Assembly: GCA_018896645.1 (NCBI GenBank)
Contig: JAHIMF010000062.1
Span: forward strand, 1 to 58,830
Direction: 5' to 3'
Length of the DNA stretch: 58,830 nt
Source of the DNA: Patescibacteria group bacterium
GTDB lineage: Bacteria > Patescibacteriota > Patescibacteriia > UBA2591 > JABMQE01
In this document: piece by piece, positions 3,676 to 42,229 of the stretch
Layout: every line of letters begins with the position of its first letter
Position numbering within the stretch: position 1 is the stretch's first letter
Position numbers and translations under genes: made by a program
The notes under the pieces: generated by a model
Told to the model about the DNA's origin: nothing
The model's input: the letters and a program-made list of their open reading frames with translations, nothing else
The model's database searches: none

Positions 3676-4896
3676 TTATTCTATCACTCCCCCGCCGAGA
3701 ACTTCATTCTTAGAATAAAAAACAACTGACTGGCCAGGGGTTATTGCGCGTTGGGATTTTTTGAATTTCACAAAAATTTTGTGTTGTTTTGTGATATTTT
3801 TGGTTAAAACAGCCTCAACCGCTGGGTGCAGGTACCGAATCCTCGCTCGACACTTCAGTGGAAACTTTGGTTCAAACCCTGAAATCCAGTTGATATTCTT
3901 GGCTGTGAGCTGATCTTTAAATAAGAGTTCCTGATCAAATTTATTAGCCACATACAAAATATTCTTCTGATAATCTAATTTTACCACATAAAACGGGCCA
4001 ATGCCACCGATAAGAATTTCCCGGCGCTGGCCGATTGTGTATAATGGCAGGCCTTGATGCTCGCCGATGACTGAACCGGGTTTAATCCCCTTCTCTTTGA
4101 CACCGTCGAGGGTGATGATGGGACCGGGTTTGAGTTTGAGATGACGGCGGAGGAAATCATAATGCCGTTTATCTTTAATAAAACAAATGCCTTGAGATTC
4201 GGCCTTCTCGAACACTGGCAATTTTTTCTTTTTAGCGACTTTGCGGACTTGGGGTTTGGTGTAATCACCGATTGGAAATAAACAATGTTTGAGTTGGGCT
4301 TGGGATAAGGTCCAAAGGAAGTATGATTGGTCTTTGGCTTTATCGTTAGCCATTCGTAACTGGTAACTGGTAACTAGTAACTTAGTTTGTTTTTTTGCTT
4401 TCTTGTTTTTTTGCTTTCTTGTTTTTTTGACGTAATGACCAGTGGCAATATAATCACAGTCAAGCCTTTTAGCGCGTTTTAAAAACTCACCAAACTTGAC
4501 ATATTTGTTGCATTCAACGCAAGGATTAGGAGTGCGACCGCGAGAGTATTCGTCTAAAAAATTATCAACCACGCGTTTCTTGAAAATTGATTTCATATTC
4601 ATGGTGTAGAGTTTGATATTGAGCTTGTCGGCAACGCGCCGGGCATCTTCATAGGCCTCGATAGAGCAACATTTGTTTTCGGGTAAGATAGATTGGGTCA
4701 AGGGACCCAATCTACCCCCAAGCTGGGTGGGTCGGATCCCTTGACCCGACCCGGTTAAACTCTCTGACCAGAATTTCATAAAAATACCGATGACCTCATA
4801 ACCCTGTTCCAATAACAAAGCAGCGGCGACTGAAGAATCAACGCCGCCGGACATGGCTACAAGAACCTTTGGCTTATTTTTATTCATAATAATCAA
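3676..4896 (-). CDS. mnmA: tRNA 2-thiouridine(34) synthase MnmA, carrying two in-frame insertions
   Basis: SGGVDSS PP-loop, TPNPCVECN, ATGHY, KDQSYFL and GICFI motifs. The likely start is MNKNK at 4887. Confidence 0.92.
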   Translation of the reverse strand: MIIMNKNKPKVLVAMSGGVDSSVAAALLLEQGYEVIGIFMKFWSESLTGSGQGIRPTQLGGRLGPLTQSILPENKCCSIEAYEDARRVADKLNIKLYTMNMKSIFKKRVVDNFLDEYSRGRTPNPCVECNKYVKFGEFLKRAKRLDCDYIATGHYVKKTRKQKNKKAKKQTKLLVTSYQLRMANDKAKDQSYFLWTLSQAQLKHCLFPIGDYTKPQVRKVAKKKKLPVFEKAESQGICFIKDKRHYDFLRRHLKLKPGPIITLDGVKEKGIKPGSVIGEHQGLPLYTIGQRREILIGGIGPFYVVKLDYQKNILYVANKFDQELLFKDQLTAKNINWISGFEPKFPLKCRARIRYLHPAVEAVLTKNITKQHKIFVKFKKSQRAITPGQSVVFYSKNEVLGGGVIE

Positions 4897-32104: not shown

Positions 32105-33868
32105 TCACCACACCAACATCACCACTTTCTTAGCCTTAGGCAAAACAATACTTTCTTTTCTGTCTCTCTTAAAAAATCTGCTCACTCCTTCTTTGGCCAA
32201 CTTCACTGGTTCTTTAGGACCTTCTGACGACCCTGGCGTATTCCCGCCACTCTCACGCCGATGCTGGCGCCATTGCAGAATCATAACGATTATACAAGCA
32301 ACAAAAATTGTTAACACAGCAAATGATATTGGCAAAGCGTATGAATAACTAAATGCTGACCAAGATGGCGAATAGATGGCCATAATTTCGTACCAGCCAA
32401 CTCTCATTGCCCAAAAAAATAACACCCCAAATATTCCCAAAGTCACCACTAAACTCAAAAGTTGAAATACCCAAGCAATAGCCTGCGCTTTTCTATTTTT
32501 TGACAAAAATTGCAGTAAACTAAATCCAATAAATATCAAGCCAAAAGGTGAAAACAACCAGCCAATCACGGATACCATATAGATAATCAGCCATTGCAGC
32601 CATTGCCAACTTCTTACCGGCGAACCAGCGCCCACCTTGTCATTATCATCTGCATCCCGAATTACTAAATCATTGGTCATCTCGCTGGTCATCATGTGGC
32701 GATATAAATAAGTTAGCCAGTATTTTTTTTGCGCCGGCTGAATCAAGGGTTCACCCTTAATATCATAAGCTAAATCTTGTATTTGATTCTTCTTGATTTT
32801 ATCAGCATACGAGGTTGTGAATCCGGGTATGTCCTTTTTATGGTCAGCAAGAACATAAAGATGAATGGGTATATTGGGTGCATATTGATGACTGTTCTGC
32901 TCGTAATATAATCCTTGGCGATTGAAATAGGCATTGAACCAAAATTTTTCTAACTGGGGACGATAATAATTTTCATCTAAACCAGCGGCATATTTCCATG
33001 ATTCTGCAGTTGGATAATTTTTTTCTTTGGCAATTATTAAAGGATAGTCACTGGCTTTTGAATCTTCATAAGGCACCTGATTGACAAGATCTTCAATAAT
33101 TTGATTTATCACTTCTTCACCAGTAGTTTTTCTGATTAAATCGCCATACCCAATTTTTTTCAAATGAGCAATTCGAGGGCCATCTAAATAAAGATTATCA
33201 GAAATCTGAACTACTTTCGGTTGCGTAGTAATTGAAGAAATCCGTAACGGATAAATAATTGCACTTGAGGCAAATTCAATTTTCAAAGGTGTGGCATGGC
33301 CCTGTTTCAAACCCTCCCCAACCTCATCGGCCTCAACTGCGCTCGTATTAATCTTAACCGCAATAAAGTACCAATTATTCTCAATATAATCATTTAATAT
33401 ATAACCGGATTCCTCTGGGTATTCATAATCATTCTGATTCAACCATTTAGCCAAAGCGCCCGAATCTGTTGCTTGCAAAACCGTGATATCATAATAATCA
33501 ACCTTTTTGGTCTCAACCACAATCACTGCCTGTTCATCATTTGCCTTGCCAGCCAGCTCCATCATGGGCATTGGTCCTCGCCAAAGAACTGGTCTGGTAA
33601 TCTCTGCGAGTGAAGTAAAAATTTCATCAGAACCCTTGGTTACTTCTGGTTTTGAAGGAATCGGAATAACCCAAGCAAAATCCTTGGCGTCCCCGGAAAA
33701 ACTTACTGAAAGCACCATGGTTTCCATTCCATTCTCATGAAAAATCACGGCTTTCTGCCCGGTCTCGTTCATATAATAATCCGGCCGCGGCAGAATCATA
33801 CCGTCAGCGTTGCTCATCATCGGGATTGCGAGAGATAATAATATAAGGAGTAAAACGAATTTTTTCAT
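32105..33868 (-). CDS. DUF2330-family secreted/membrane protein
   Basis: Signal peptide, then 'GQKAVIFHENGMETMVLSVSFSGDAKDFAWVIPIPSKPEV', typical of DUF2330. C-terminal TM cluster. Confidence 0.7.
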   Translation of the reverse strand: MKKFVLLLILLSLAIPMMSNADGMILPRPDYYMNETGQKAVIFHENGMETMVLSVSFSGDAKDFAWVIPIPSKPEVTKGSDEIFTSLAEITRPVLWRGPMPMMELAGKANDEQAVIVVETKKVDYYDITVLQATDSGALAKWLNQNDYEYPEESGYILNDYIENNWYFIAVKINTSAVEADEVGEGLKQGHATPLKIEFASSAIIYPLRISSITTQPKVVQISDNLYLDGPRIAHLKKIGYGDLIRKTTGEEVINQIIEDLVNQVPYEDSKASDYPLIIAKEKNYPTAESWKYAAGLDENYYRPQLEKFWFNAYFNRQGLYYEQNSHQYAPNIPIHLYVLADHKKDIPGFTTSYADKIKKNQIQDLAYDIKGEPLIQPAQKKYWLTYLYRHMMTSEMTNDLVIRDADDNDKVGAGSPVRSWQWLQWLIIYMVSVIGWLFSPFGLIFIGFSLLQFLSKNRKAQAIAWVFQLLSLVVTLGIFGVLFFWAMRVGWYEIMAIYSPSWSAFSYSYALPISFAVLTIFVACIIVMILQWRQHRRESGGNTPGSSEGPKEPVKLAKEGVSRFFKRDRKESIVLPKAKKVVMLVW

Positions 33869-34023
33869 AATTTTATGGTTTGGTAATTTATAGTAATACG
33901 ATGGTAACACAGTTGTAATACAGTTGTAACACAGTTGTAATACGATTGTAACTCTGGGTATTACAATTGTATTACTATCGTATTACGCGAGGCGAGCCGC
34001 AGCGAGCCGAGCTTATTACTTTT

Positions 34024-34455: not shown

Positions 34456-34629
34456 ATTAAACACGGATGAGCACGGATTATTTATGTACGGATGGCCACG
34501 GATCACGGATCTGTGATCCGTATAAATCCGTTATTAATCCTTAAAAATCCGTGTTAAACCTTTAAATTACAAAATTTGCTTTAATAATCTTTGTTGATGT
34601 GGAAAACAGTTATACACTTTTGCCATAAG

Positions 34630-34660
34630 TTATCCCCACTTTCATCCACATTCTCCCACA
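34630..34660 (-). promoter_or_regulatory. putative MraZ operator: three GTGGR repeats at 10-bp spacing
   Basis: Minus strand reads GTGGGAGAAT GTGGATGAAA GTGGGGATAA, just downstream of the promoter. Confidence 0.5.
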
Positions 34661-34668
34661 TCAATTTT

Positions 34669-34697
34669 ATTATACCCCACCTTGCCACACTCGTCAA
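34669..34697 (-). promoter_or_regulatory. dcw/mraZ promoter TTGACG-N17-TATAAT
   Basis: Minus strand has TTGACG at 34697..34692 and TATAAT at 34674..34669. Confidence 0.55.
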
Positions 34698-34887
34698 CAC
34701 TTTATATTTTATACTAATATTAGCCAAACTTATCCGATATTGTGAGTAAAGTGTGGATAAATAATACTTCTTACATTATTTACCCTGTTAAATGAAAGCC
34801 ATTGACAAAGTCAGTGGTTAACAAAATCAGTCGCAGTTGGTGGTCTAACGCCACCAACAAACGACATTGATTTAACAAGGGCTACTA

Positions 34888-34916
34888 TTGACAATATTTT
34901 ATAGAAAAGATAGTAT
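34888..34916 (+). promoter_or_regulatory. promoter TTGACA-N17-TAGTAT for the plus-strand island
   Basis: TTGACA at 34888..34893 and TAGTAT at 34911..34916. A leader of about 165 nt follows. Confidence 0.5.
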
Positions 34917-35087
34917 AAAAACAGCACCTTTAATTCCTGTTGCTGGATGCAGCCTCGACAAGACGGGGTGGTTGCAAGCAATAAATCGTTCCATTCACCT
35001 CTCAAACGCCTGGATGCGTAGTCGCCGCTAGTCTGCCGATGAGGGTCAGGAAAATGCGGGACCGGACGCAAGGCAAAGGAGGAATTC

Positions 35088-35855
35088 ATGTCTAAGTATC
35101 GGTTTTCTGATTTACCCTTTGATGGTGGCATTGGCCAGGAAATAGTAGTGGTCCAGCCAGGCCCAACCGCGAGTCTTGACAAGGAGAACTTCCTTGCCAG
35201 GGGTGAGTTTGAATCAGTTTTCGCTGCAGTTATGGGCGACAATGCGCTGGTTCACACTGGCACTCTGCACTGTGTTGATGGAGGTGAGCCCTTGAGATTC
35301 AACGAATGTGGTGGCTTTCTCTATCGTGATGTCCACCCCCTGTGCTCTATCCATCCTTTGCAAAATAGGGTGTATGTTGATTTGGAGAAGGATGGTTGGC
35401 CCGCGTTTCATTGTGCTGGTTGCGATACGACTGCAACTCCGAAAATGACAAAAAGAGAGTTCAAGGACTTGATGCTCCATCTAATGATTAAACAAATGGT
35501 CCCCAGCTGGTTTGCGTGTAATTACACCGACTGTAGTCAAATGTCCGAGGATTACCATCCACGAGGCAAAGAAGCAATAAGGGAATTACAAGCTCTTGGG
35601 GTTATTTCAATAGCCCCTAAAATCCTGTGGGGCTTATCACCGGAAAACGCAAGCCGTGAGCAATCTGGTCACTGCGGAATCATGGGTCATCACAGCTTAG
35701 GATTTATGGTGATGCCGGGTACTCGATCCCTGACCCACGGTTGTGATGGCTTTGACGAATGGTTGAAGCTTTTGTTCATTAAATATCGCGAACATATTAG
35801 CGATTGGAACAAAGCAGCAACCAAATCCGCTCTTGGCCCCAGACCAGCAAAATAA
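35088..35855 (+). CDS. orphan Cys/His-rich protein (255 aa)
   Basis: AAAGGAGGA lies 6 nt upstream. 9 Cys, mostly next to His (LHC, FHCAGC, GHCG, THGC). I recognise no family. Confidence 0.6.
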   Translation: MSKYRFSDLPFDGGIGQEIVVVQPGPTASLDKENFLARGEFESVFAAVMGDNALVHTGTLHCVDGGEPLRFNECGGFLYRDVHPLCSIHPLQNRVYVDLEKDGWPAFHCAGCDTTATPKMTKREFKDLMLHLMIKQMVPSWFACNYTDCSQMSEDYHPRGKEAIRELQALGVISIAPKILWGLSPENASREQSGHCGIMGHHSLGFMVMPGTRSLTHGCDGFDEWLKLLFIKYREHISDWNKAATKSALGPRPAK

Positions 35856-35916
35856 TGGTCAGAAGTTCAGATTCAACTCCTTGGGTGGGAGCCAAAAAGT
35901 GTTGCAAAATGAAACT

Positions 35917-35995
35917 GCGCCCGTAGCTCTAAATTGGATAGAGCGATGGACTCCAAATCCAGTGGTTGAGGGTTCAAGTCCCTCCGGGCGTGCCA
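35917..35995 (+). tRNA. tRNA-Trp (anticodon CCA), CCA encoded
   Basis: Hand fold: acceptor GCGCCCG/CGGGCGT (G1-U72), anticodon loop CTCCAAA, T-arm GAGGGTTCAAGTCCCTC, 11-nt D-loop, A-G mismatch at 27:43. Confidence 0.85.
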
Positions 35996-36003
35996 GAAAA
36001 ACA

Positions 36004-36082
36004 GCCGCTGTAGCTCTAACTGGCTCAGAGCAACGCCCTTGTAAGGCGAAGGCTATCGGTTCGAGTCCGGTCAGCGGCTCCA
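36004..36082 (+). tRNA. tRNA-Thr (anticodon TGT), CCA encoded
   Basis: Hand fold: acceptor GCCGCTG/CAGCGGC, anticodon loop CTTGTAA, T-arm ATCGGTTCGAGTCCGGT, A-A mismatch at 27:43. Confidence 0.85.
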
Positions 36083-36099
36083 AAATTTGTTCATTCAAT

Positions 36100-36466
36100 T
36101 TTGCCATGATAAGACGGTAGCCTACTCTTGCGTGAAGTAAAAAAGGAGTTATCCTGGAATATATCTCTACAGAAAAGAGATGAAACCCGAAGGAAAATGG
36201 CTATTAGTCTCGGGTGTTTTTTCATGGCTAACCTAGCAAGGCGGTGGTCTTTCCACTGTAACAAGTGCGCGAAGGGTTAAACATGGCTAATGTGGTCTGG
36301 CTGCGGCCGCGGTCAGATTATGTAGACAGCCGATGTTTCAATTCGTGCCAAGCAGTGCAGTGGCTTACCAGGACCCCTTATCCTCTGGTGCGCCGATTAC
36401 CTTTCAGGGGAGGATGAGCGGGCGATGCCAAGACCGAATATCCTGGCGCCTTGCGGGCCTTTCATT
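36100..36466 (+). ncRNA. unclassified GC-rich structured non-coding region downstream of the tRNAs
   Basis: No credible ORF. Hairpin plus T-run at 36185..36222. ATGGCTA occurs three times (36197, 36224, 36283). 12-bp helix 36374..36385 with 36410..36422, extended by 36368..36373 with 36441..36446. Ends at a strong terminator. Confidence 0.3.
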
Positions 36467-36512
36467 AAGGCATGACTTTAATCAAAACAAGAAGTCATGC
36501 CTTTTTCTTTTC
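36467..36512 (+). terminator. rho-independent terminator (11-bp stem AAGGCATGACT/AGTCATGCCTT plus T-run)
   Basis: Read directly. Convergent with the tsaB terminator at 36527..36555 (minus strand CAGTTTGTGT/ACACAGCTG plus TTTTTTT). Confidence 0.75.
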
Positions 36513-36573
36513 TCTAAACAAAAAAACAGCTGTGTAAAACACAAACTGCTTCCCTATTTACTCTTTTACTTGT

Positions 36574-36993
36574 TTACTTGGTTAACCACTTACTTCCAGT
36601 TATATTCGGTTCCCTCCCATAAAACGGTTCAACCGTCTCCCCTACCCTTGTCTTCTTTAATCTCAACTTACCCATTTTAATCAGGCCCTGCAAATCCTCA
36701 AACTCGCTCAACTTTACCCCAACAACTGGAATTTGTAAAGCATAACTTAAAGTATTAGCCACTACCACGCCCACCCGCACAGATGAAAAACCACCAGGAC
36801 CTTTCACAACCACTACCCCCTGCAAATCAGTGAGTTTAACTTTATTCTTCTTTAATAATTTATCAACAGTTGACAATAACTTTTCTGATTCCTTGTATTG
36901 AACCCTAACAACAGTCTTATCTAAAATAAAATCATCGCGGGTAATCGCGATAACTAACTTATTTGATTCAGCTGTGTTAATTACTAAAATCAT
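36574..36993 (-). CDS. tsaB: tRNA threonylcarbamoyladenosine biosynthesis protein TsaB (short form)
   Basis: 'MILVINTA...' and 'VVVVKGPGGFSSVRVGVVVANTLSYALQIPVVGV'. Confidence 0.7.
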   Translation of the reverse strand: MILVINTAESNKLVIAITRDDFILDKTVVRVQYKESEKLLSTVDKLLKKNKVKLTDLQGVVVVKGPGGFSSVRVGVVVANTLSYALQIPVVGVKLSEFEDLQGLIKMGKLRLKKTRVGETVEPFYGREPNITGSKWLTK

Positions 36994-41827: not shown

Positions 41828-42229
41828 TCAACTATTGACTGCTTCCGGCTTTAAATCGTCTAGCGTCGGGAATATTTTGAGCTCAATAATTCTTCTTTCT
41901 TCTTCCTGGACCAGCAAGCCCTTCCGCCTCAAAGCCCTATTAGCGATTAAAGCTTTTTCATCTATTTTTCTGTCCCGCACAACTGTATCGCCTTTTAAAT
42001 CTGCTAATTTTTCATCAAGGTAATCTTTGGTTACCATTTGATTGTCTACATGGTCAATCTTTTTCTCTAGTCTTTGCTCTACGTGGTCAATCTTTTTCTC
42101 TAGTCTTTGCTCTACATGGTCAATCTTTTTGTAAACATCGTCAAAAGAGGGTTTTATGTATTTTATAACCCCATCCTCAAAACTTTCATCAAAAATTCCT
42201 TTTATTTGTTTTAAGTCTTCTTTTTGCAT
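41828..42229 (-). CDS. coiled-coil protein with tandem 11-aa repeats (IDHVEQRLEKK)
   Basis: 133 aa. 33-bp tandem units at 42051..42083 and 42084..42116, plus a partial third. Leaderless-type promoter at 42236..42264. Confidence 0.6.
   Translation of the reverse strand: MQKEDLKQIKGIFDESFEDGVIKYIKPSFDDVYKKIDHVEQRLEKKIDHVEQRLEKKIDHVDNQMVTKDYLDEKLADLKGDTVVRDRKIDEKALIANRALRRKGLLVQEEERRIIELKIFPTLDDLKPEAVNS

Follow-up and report, generated by a model that had tools for sequence, protein, structure and literature searches.

The stretch of DNA analysed here, which we refer to as the window, comprises 58,830 nt of contig JAHIMF010000062.1 from a Patescibacteria group bacterium. Between mraZ and tsaB it carries a plus-strand block of about 1.8 kb that contains a promoter, a 5′ leader, an open reading frame (ORF) of 255 codons, two tRNA genes, a non-coding trailer and a terminator. 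We found that the leader holds a previously undescribed pair of tandem hairpins, which is conserved in front of homologues of the ORF, and that the tRNAs and the trailer stand beside the ORF in the lineage of the window alone. Patescibacteria, also known as the candidate phyla radiation (CPR), account for a large part of bacterial diversity, have tiny genomes and cannot be cultured alone, and we know of almost no gene regulation that has been described for them. The genes of the window are typical for this group and include mraZ, rsmH, ftsI, murE, tsaB and rplJ/L. The window is identical in sequence to contig JAHIPQ010000025.1 of another metagenome-assembled genome (MAG; GCA_018894455.1), and a Logan contig also matches it, with 0 differences in the region of interest.

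A plus-strand unit between mraZ and tsaB

The block is one probable transcription unit built of unrelated pieces. It begins with a sigma-70-type promoter on the plus strand (34888..34916), in which TTGACA at 34888, a 17-nt spacer and TAGTAT match the consensus at 10 of 12 positions. A leader of about 170 nt that bears the tandem-hairpin motif follows (34918..35087, plus strand) and runs up to the ORF (35088..35855, plus strand). The 61 nt between the ORF stop and the first tRNA gene (35856..35916, plus strand; fold z score +0.83) contain neither a terminator nor a promoter-like site, which makes co-transcription of the ORF and the tRNAs plausible. The plus-strand unit ends at an intrinsic terminator (36467..36512; z −5.25), whose GC-rich 13-bp stem (36467-36503) is followed by the U run UUUUUCUUUU. 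Facing it on the minus strand is the convergent intrinsic terminator of tsaB (36515..36560; z −4.4), which likewise consists of a GC-rich hairpin and a U run. All parts of the unit are richer in G+C than their surroundings, with a GC fraction of 0.53 for the leader, 0.475 for the ORF, 0.57 for the tRNAs and 0.48 for the trailer, against 0.395 for the window. A first-pass annotation, made from the letters of the window alone, had described a GC-richer island with this promoter and a convergent terminator pair, and each of these elements was recovered. That annotation had also called the island self-contained. The uninterrupted run from the ORF to the tRNAs agrees with that description, but its status as a single unit goes no further than plausible co-transcription.

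A conserved pair of hairpins precedes the ORF

We compared the window with 14 other loci that carry a homologue of the ORF (L001, L002, L005, L006, L007, L008, L010, L020 and L021-L026). Loci L021-L026 were taken from GTDB genomes, which bear the labels Parcubacteria, Saccharibacteria and Patescibacteria and, in the case of one MAG, Gammaproteobacteria. In this last MAG (L026), contig CAYILY010000007.1 has a CPR-like dcw cluster together with the leader motif and an ORF of the CPR type, and it is likely to have been mis-binned or mislabelled. Two tandem, promoter-proximal hairpins were present in the leaders of all 15 loci with sequence 5′ of the ORF, window included, and a TTGACA-type −35 element at a similar distance from hairpin 1 could be read in most of the homologous loci. 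The hairpins share one plan. A basal helix P1 of 4-6 bp leads to a 5′ bulge of the form R-G-M (usually GGA or GGC), a helix P2 of 4-5 bp (UGCnn/nnGCA) and a variable P3. On the 3′ side there is a bulge, which in hairpin 1 often reads UGGUU and in hairpin 2 reads GG; P2′ and P1′ follow, in some cases with a single bulged U.

In the window, hairpin 1 occupies 34941..34981 on the plus strand, with P1 UUGCU/AGCAA, the 5′ bulge GGA (34945-47), P2 UGCA/UGCA, P3 CCUCG/CGGGG and the 3′ bulge UGGU. It scored 12.4 bits (E 1.1) against a covariance model, R1, and folding of the single sequence gave the same structure (z −3.2). The first-pass annotation had drawn a helix here between GCAGCC (34949-54) and GGTTGC (34970-75); this helix overlaps the real hairpin 1. 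Hairpin 2 (35008..35074, plus strand) consists of P1 GCCU/AGGC, the 5′ bulge GGA (35012-14), P2 UGCGU/ACGCA, a long P3 and the 3′ bulge CGG (35063-65). It scored 17.4 bits (E 0.019) with R1, although the window copy of hairpin 2 lay outside the training set, and its minimum-energy fold is the comparative model.

R1 was trained on 11 short hairpins and searched over 183 kb on both strands at E ≤ 10. This search returned 26 matches, of which 24 were leader hairpins of these loci. They included five hairpin-2 and eight hairpin-1 copies on which the model had not been trained, for example in the window, L002, L006, L010 and L021. The other two were weak matches inside the ftsI coding region of L026 and were judged to be false positives. 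The pairing is supported by covariation. In a MAFFT alignment, which is not fitted to the model, 97% of cells were paired and 9 of 13 pairs showed compensatory changes, and controls with a slid register gave 19-50% paired cells. In the model-fitted alignment, 98% of cells were paired, 10 of 12 pairs were compensatory and there were 84 double-change cells, compared with 24 ± 4 in shuffles. The GG dinucleotide never varied in either bulge, and neither did two of the P2 pairs, one G-C and one C-G.

The position of hairpin 2 is also conserved. In the window the Shine-Dalgarno sequence GGAGG (35078..35082, plus strand) starts 3 nt past the base of hairpin 2 and ends 5 nt before the ATG. The same layout, with the Shine-Dalgarno sequence directly behind hairpin 2, was found in 13 of the 14 homologous leaders; the distance from the hairpin base is 0-4 nt, and in L008 the two overlap. 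In the leader of L002, an insert of about 70 nt separates hairpin 2 from the Shine-Dalgarno sequence (3987-4050) and includes a third hairpin of the GGAUGC type, and L006, a close relative of L002, does not have this insert. Within the leaders of L021 (378-479) and L008 (4922-4994), hairpins 1 and 2 are near-identical to each other, P3 included, which points to a recent duplication or to concerted evolution of the copies.

Searches against Rfam 15 with the leaders of the window, L001, L006, L010, L020 and L022 gave no credible match; at E ≤ 10, the window leader returned only a 16.7-bit minus-strand fragment of SAM-II (E 6.5). The first-pass annotation had seen a faint resemblance to a T-box. 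T-box leaders are recognized by a Stem I with a specifier loop, a T-box sequence and an antiterminator. No T-box (RF00230) match was found at E ≤ 10 over 34700-36700, and the leader contains no terminator or antiterminator ahead of the ORF. The guanidine-II (mini-ykkC) riboswitch was also set aside, as the terminal P3 loops vary in length and sequence and conservation sits in the bulges. We found no account of such a hairpin motif in CPR bacteria in the literature. The leader is thus a previously undescribed conserved motif that is tied to the ORF and is not a T-box, and the early hunch that it is structured was borne out by the covarying hairpin pair.

The ORF belongs to an uncharacterized protein family

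The 255-aa product of the ORF has nine cysteines (C62, C74, C86, C109, C112, C144, C149, C195 and C219), several of them beside histidines, as a direct reading had indicated. The same reading had matched it to no family. This is true of curated libraries, since profile searches of Pfam, NCBIfam, PADLOC and PDB sequences returned nothing for the ORF, but the protein does have relatives. A word-indexed protein search gave only two, and a profile of three sequences, searched exhaustively with HMMER, gave 106 clusters at 50% identity, nearly all of 220-280 aa save for a few fragments. Judged by these sequence comparisons, the family is real and coherent within Patescibacteria. The family profile retrieved no viral copy from IMG/VR.

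In an alignment of 71 sequences, D8, P24, H56, C74, C109, C112, K135, Q136, P139, G171, W225, G250 and P251 were near-invariant, and the closer subfamily additionally conserves H131, C144, C149 and C219. H56, C74, C109 and C112 could plausibly form a His-Cys3 metal site. Matches to Zn_ribbon_Top1 were seen in only two of the 71 members (best E 6.6e-4, weak), and the window protein had none. AlphaFold2 with the 71-sequence alignment produced a confident alpha/beta model (mean predicted local distance difference test score 90.1, predicted template modelling (TM) score 0.89). Foldseek found no neighbour of this model in the PDB (best E 0.78, TM below 0.2) or in BFVD (best E 0.99). Weak matches to ABBA prenyltransferases and GNAT acetyltransferases had a TM below 0.2 and a probability of at most 0.08 and were not used.

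The surroundings of the gene vary, but in 6 of the 15 loci it lies beside genes for the cell wall or cell division. In the window the ORF is divergent from mraZ and the dcw cluster, and in L026 (5680-7111) it stands directly upstream of mraZ-rsmH-ftsL-ftsI. It lies near PBP2-mreC-mreB in L023 (5977-10698), near PBP2 in L024 (6001-8508), near mltG/YceG in L008 (3362-5756) and near an LD-carboxypeptidase gene in L005 (3971-6526). These positions hint at a role of the protein in the cell envelope. The family combines a confidently predicted fold and the lack of any known relative with a recurrent place by peptidoglycan and cell-division genes.

The tRNAs and the trailer are local neighbours

The two tRNA genes that follow the ORF are ordinary. 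ARAGORN and Rfam identified tRNA-Trp (CCA anticodon; 35917..35995, plus strand) and tRNA-Thr (UGU anticodon; 36004..36082, plus strand), with RF00005 scores of 56.3 and 57.1 bits, respectively, against a cut-off of 29. Both have an encoded 3′ CCA and a non-standard 27:43 pair (A.G in tRNA-Trp and A.A in tRNA-Thr). The first-pass annotation had read these features correctly, and it had suggested that the ORF, the tRNAs and the RNA behind them could form a protein-RNA system or serve a tRNA-related function. The common span from promoter to terminator, which has no internal terminator, and the raised GC content of all four parts would suit such a system. However, no tRNA stands beside the ORF in any of the 14 homologous loci, the sole tRNA in them being the tRNA-Val of L008, which lies about 4.7 kb further downstream, and nhmmer found nothing like 36083-36520 in any of them. 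Homologues of the ORF exist, but they are not syntenic with the RNA region, and 12 of the 14 ORFs have a terminator hairpin of their own no more than about 50 nt downstream. With this lack of synteny in 14 loci, with standard tRNAs and with a trailer that has no detectable conservation or exceptional folding, the proposal is refuted in the form in which it was made, and we regard a single system of ORF, tRNAs and RNA as very improbable. The layout is a lineage-specific juxtaposition, a local accident.

The trailer is a GC-rich non-coding stretch of 384 nt (36083..36466, plus strand) with no family match and no homologue in our searches. It had been described as structured, and against its own shuffles it does fold with a z of −3.0 (plus strand) or −2.5 (minus strand). 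These values lie within the background of the contig, since 26 random 380-nt windows had a mean z of −1.7 (sd 1.7) and 5 of the 26 folded better than the trailer; folding energy therefore does not mark the trailer as a structured RNA. Rfam gave no match at the gathering score or at E ≤ 10, either over 2 kb or for 446 nt alone, and neither ARAGORN nor Rfam found a transfer-messenger RNA (tmRNA). The ORFs of the trailer and all six of its frames returned nothing from Pfam, and tblastn of 1170 ORF segments from related loci against the trailer was equally empty. With nhmmer, no homologue was found in the remainder of the window or in 26 loci. Among 50,697 phage records, blastn gave only chance matches of 22-37 nt. 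A search of IMG/VR for exact 17-25-mers and for the tRNA-Trp/tRNA-Thr tandem pattern gave nothing beyond one chance match of 21 nt, shared by two contigs of giant viruses. In the nearest NCBI genome, TsaB is only 44% identical. A 26-nt direct repeat links the 3′ part of the ORF (35771-35796) and the start of the trailer (36086-36111), with 20 of 26 matches, and is probably due to chance.

The trailer could instead be a highly diverged housekeeping RNA, such as RNase P RNA, or a new lineage-specific structured RNA that is co-transcribed with the tRNAs. In bacterial RNase P RNA, the conserved regions CR-I (GGAAAGUCC) and CR-V (ACAGAAnnnGGCUUA) form P4. The size of the trailer, its GC content and its place behind tRNAs fit such an RNA, and GGCUUA at 36362 and AAACAUGGCUAA at 36279 faintly recall CR-V on direct reading. 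RNase P RNAs of CPR bacteria can be very diverged and fall below Rfam thresholds (PMC8172020), which would allow one to be missed. Yet 36075-36520 gave no match to RF00010 or RF00011 at E ≤ 10, a search that reaches down to scores of about 15 bits; the universal CR-I is absent, with no AGUCC anywhere in 36083-36466; and the CR-V-like motifs are misplaced. The missing CR-I and the lack of a sub-threshold match make RNase P RNA unlikely, and with no tmRNA, no homologue in the collections searched and a folding z within the contig background, we consider a diverged or new RNA of this kind improbable. The simplest reading is that it would be a 3′ trailer peculiar to this lineage, or what is left of the rearrangement that brought the block between tsaB and mraZ.

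Origin of the block

The closest loci among TsaB relatives, L016 and L017 (64% identity), have tsaB, then 373 nt, then mraZ, and the sequence upstream of their mraZ is homologous to 34598-34767 of the window. In L012 (TsaB 51% identity), the tsaB-mraZ interval holds a membrane-protein gene and a DUF2196 gene; a 267-aa gene in this interval is not a homologue of the ORF. Because the tsaB-mraZ interval is without the block in all three, we take the block of about 1.8 kb to be specific to the lineage of the window.

An 18-nt inverted repeat brackets the block, with the left arm AAGTCAGTGGTTAACAAA at 34808..34825 and the right arm, on the minus strand, at 36578..36595 within the last seven codons of tsaB. 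The arms match at 16 of 18 positions, with 2 mismatches, and share a core GGTTAAC; the chance expectation is 0.05 such matches in the window. The right arm encodes an atypical TsaB tail, GSKWLTK, and nine relatives have a basic tail of the KPKKK type. Between the left arm and the promoter lies a strong 9-bp hairpin, GUUGGUGGU/GCCACCAAC (34836..34858). Its folding energy is −18.9 kcal/mol (z −4.3) for the plus strand and −21.0 kcal/mol (z −5.0) for the minus strand, and no U run follows it on either.

The first-pass annotation had raised the possibility of a mobile-element relic, and the block, from about 34806 to 36597, might indeed be a horizontally acquired or transposed cassette. Such an origin is compatible with our explanation of how the parts work. 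The absence of the block from L016, L017 and L012, its GC fraction of 0.475-0.57, the inverted repeat at both edges and the right arm that takes the place of the usual basic TsaB tail all fit a cassette, as does the 48% GC contig in which the nearest relative of the ORF, in L010, is found. However, no transposase-like ORF was apparent in the block from the ORF list or Pfam, and no integrase gene was found. The repeat is short with a palindromic core, and a gapped extension of it was not significant. The tRNA-Thr 3′ end has no att-like direct repeat in the window and, with no second copy of this end and no integrase, a tRNA-targeted genomic island was rejected. In addition, tRNA-Trp is likely to be an essential, single-copy gene in a small genome, which would fit a rearrangement better than foreign cargo. 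We find a mobile cassette less likely than not: the lineage specificity, GC richness and inverted repeat lend it some support, which stays weak because neither a transposase, an integrase nor an att-like repeat was found. The block probably arose through a rearrangement or an old insertion.

Three further features of the window lie near the block or elsewhere. The region upstream of mraZ (34590-34770), whose DNA sequence is conserved in L016/L017, contains repeated GTGG(G/A) boxes that resemble a MraZ operator. The dcw cluster has an unusual insertion, in that mraZ and rsmH are separated by a gene for a DUF2330 membrane protein (32105-33910). Self-comparison of the contig copies showed a 57-nt tandem duplication at 42042-42130.

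A model for the leader

We propose a composite reading, to which we give a probability of about 70%, in which the leader and the ORF form a conserved cis-regulated module and the tRNAs and trailer were juxtaposed to it secondarily. The leader would be a cis-acting element that controls translation of the ORF. A factor would bind the G-rich bulges of both hairpins and lock hairpin 2, which would hinder access of the 30S subunit to the ribosome-binding site next to it. By the logic of the Escherichia coli thrS operator, the most likely factor may be a dimer of the encoded Cys/His-rich protein, because the motif is seen only before one family and the hairpins are near-duplicates. In the lineage of the window alone, the tRNAs 3′ of the ORF would be read from its promoter, with no terminator between them, and would be cut from the transcript by RNase P and 3′-end processing enzymes.

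Several points weigh against this reading. The motif precedes a single family in loci that were picked for containing that family, and no detected domain of the protein points to RNA binding. The regulatory role assigned to the leader draws on position and conservation. The Shine-Dalgarno sequence frequently has a possible pairing partner in a pyrimidine tract 5′ of hairpin 2, but the signal for such an anti-Shine-Dalgarno tract is weak (mean z −0.59 over 14 leaders). The transcription start, the RNA ends and co-transcription are predictions from the sequence, and the trailer could be a functional RNA with relatives outside the searched collections.

The same cis-regulatory logic would apply, with only the ligand changed, if the leader were a tandem riboswitch whose bulged hairpins act as aptamers, each for a small molecule, perhaps a cell-envelope precursor or a metal, and gate access to the Shine-Dalgarno sequence. 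In favour of this, the conserved nucleotides lie in the internal bulges and two invariant G-C pairs rather than in terminal loops; two alike tandem domains at a ribosome-binding site recall the guanidine-II and NAD+-I riboswitches; and the ORF adjoins cell-wall genes in 6 of 15 loci. But riboswitches usually control several gene families and this motif was seen ahead of just one, the individual hairpins are small, no Rfam class matches and no ligand can be named. A riboswitch is less likely than not, though almost as probable as autoregulation by the encoded protein, which we favour slightly.

In its broadest form, the proposal would make the leader a new Patescibacteria-specific riboswitch class or RNA operator that controls a zinc-binding, new-fold protein of envelope biogenesis, with a trailer that may be a structured RNA matured with the tRNAs. 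We offer this combination tentatively and think it unlikely to hold in full. A riboswitch ligand would hint at the function of the protein, and an autoregulatory operator would define the protein as a new RNA-binding family. Either way, a gene-specific structured leader that is conserved from Parcubacteria to Saccharibacteria with strong covariation is a testable entry into CPR gene regulation.

Comparison with known systems

The individual parts of the unit resemble known systems to different degrees. Like the diverged RNase P RNAs of CPR bacteria (PMC8172020), the trailer is a GC-rich stretch of 300-400 nt in a CPR genome that standard thresholds could miss, but it is without CR-I, CR-V and the P4 geometry and has no sub-threshold Rfam match. 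Mixed tRNA-protein operons such as E. coli thrU-tyrU-glyT-thrT-tufB likewise place tRNA and protein genes between one promoter and one terminator, and E. coli tyrT, with its repeat-bearing 3′ trailer, also has a long non-tRNA trailer after the last tRNA. Unlike in those mixed operons, the protein gene here comes first and has its own regulatory leader, and the layout is not conserved even among near relatives.

The leader itself can be compared with tandem riboswitches. The guanidine-II riboswitch consists of two hairpins, each with a conserved ACGR tetraloop. Both it and the NAD+-I (nadA) riboswitch are built of two small tandem stem-loops of like sequence, the second of which lies at or overlaps the Shine-Dalgarno sequence, and the nadA domains are bulged stems, as in the present leader. 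In contrast to guanidine-II, ACGR tetraloops are absent here, because the P3 loops vary; the bulges differ in sequence from those of nadA; and, against both, the downstream gene family is unrelated and no Rfam match was found at E ≤ 10.

The other comparison is with the E. coli thrS operator and the leaders of ribosomal-protein genes. There is no homology of sequence or structure between these and the present leader, and compared with thrS the conserved elements are internal G-rich bulges instead of anticodon-like loops, with a predicted binder that has no known RNA-binding domain. What is shared is the architecture: two similar hairpins lie just 5′ of the ribosome-binding site of one gene, a layout that would suit translational autoregulation in which a dimer of the gene's own product blocks the 30S subunit.

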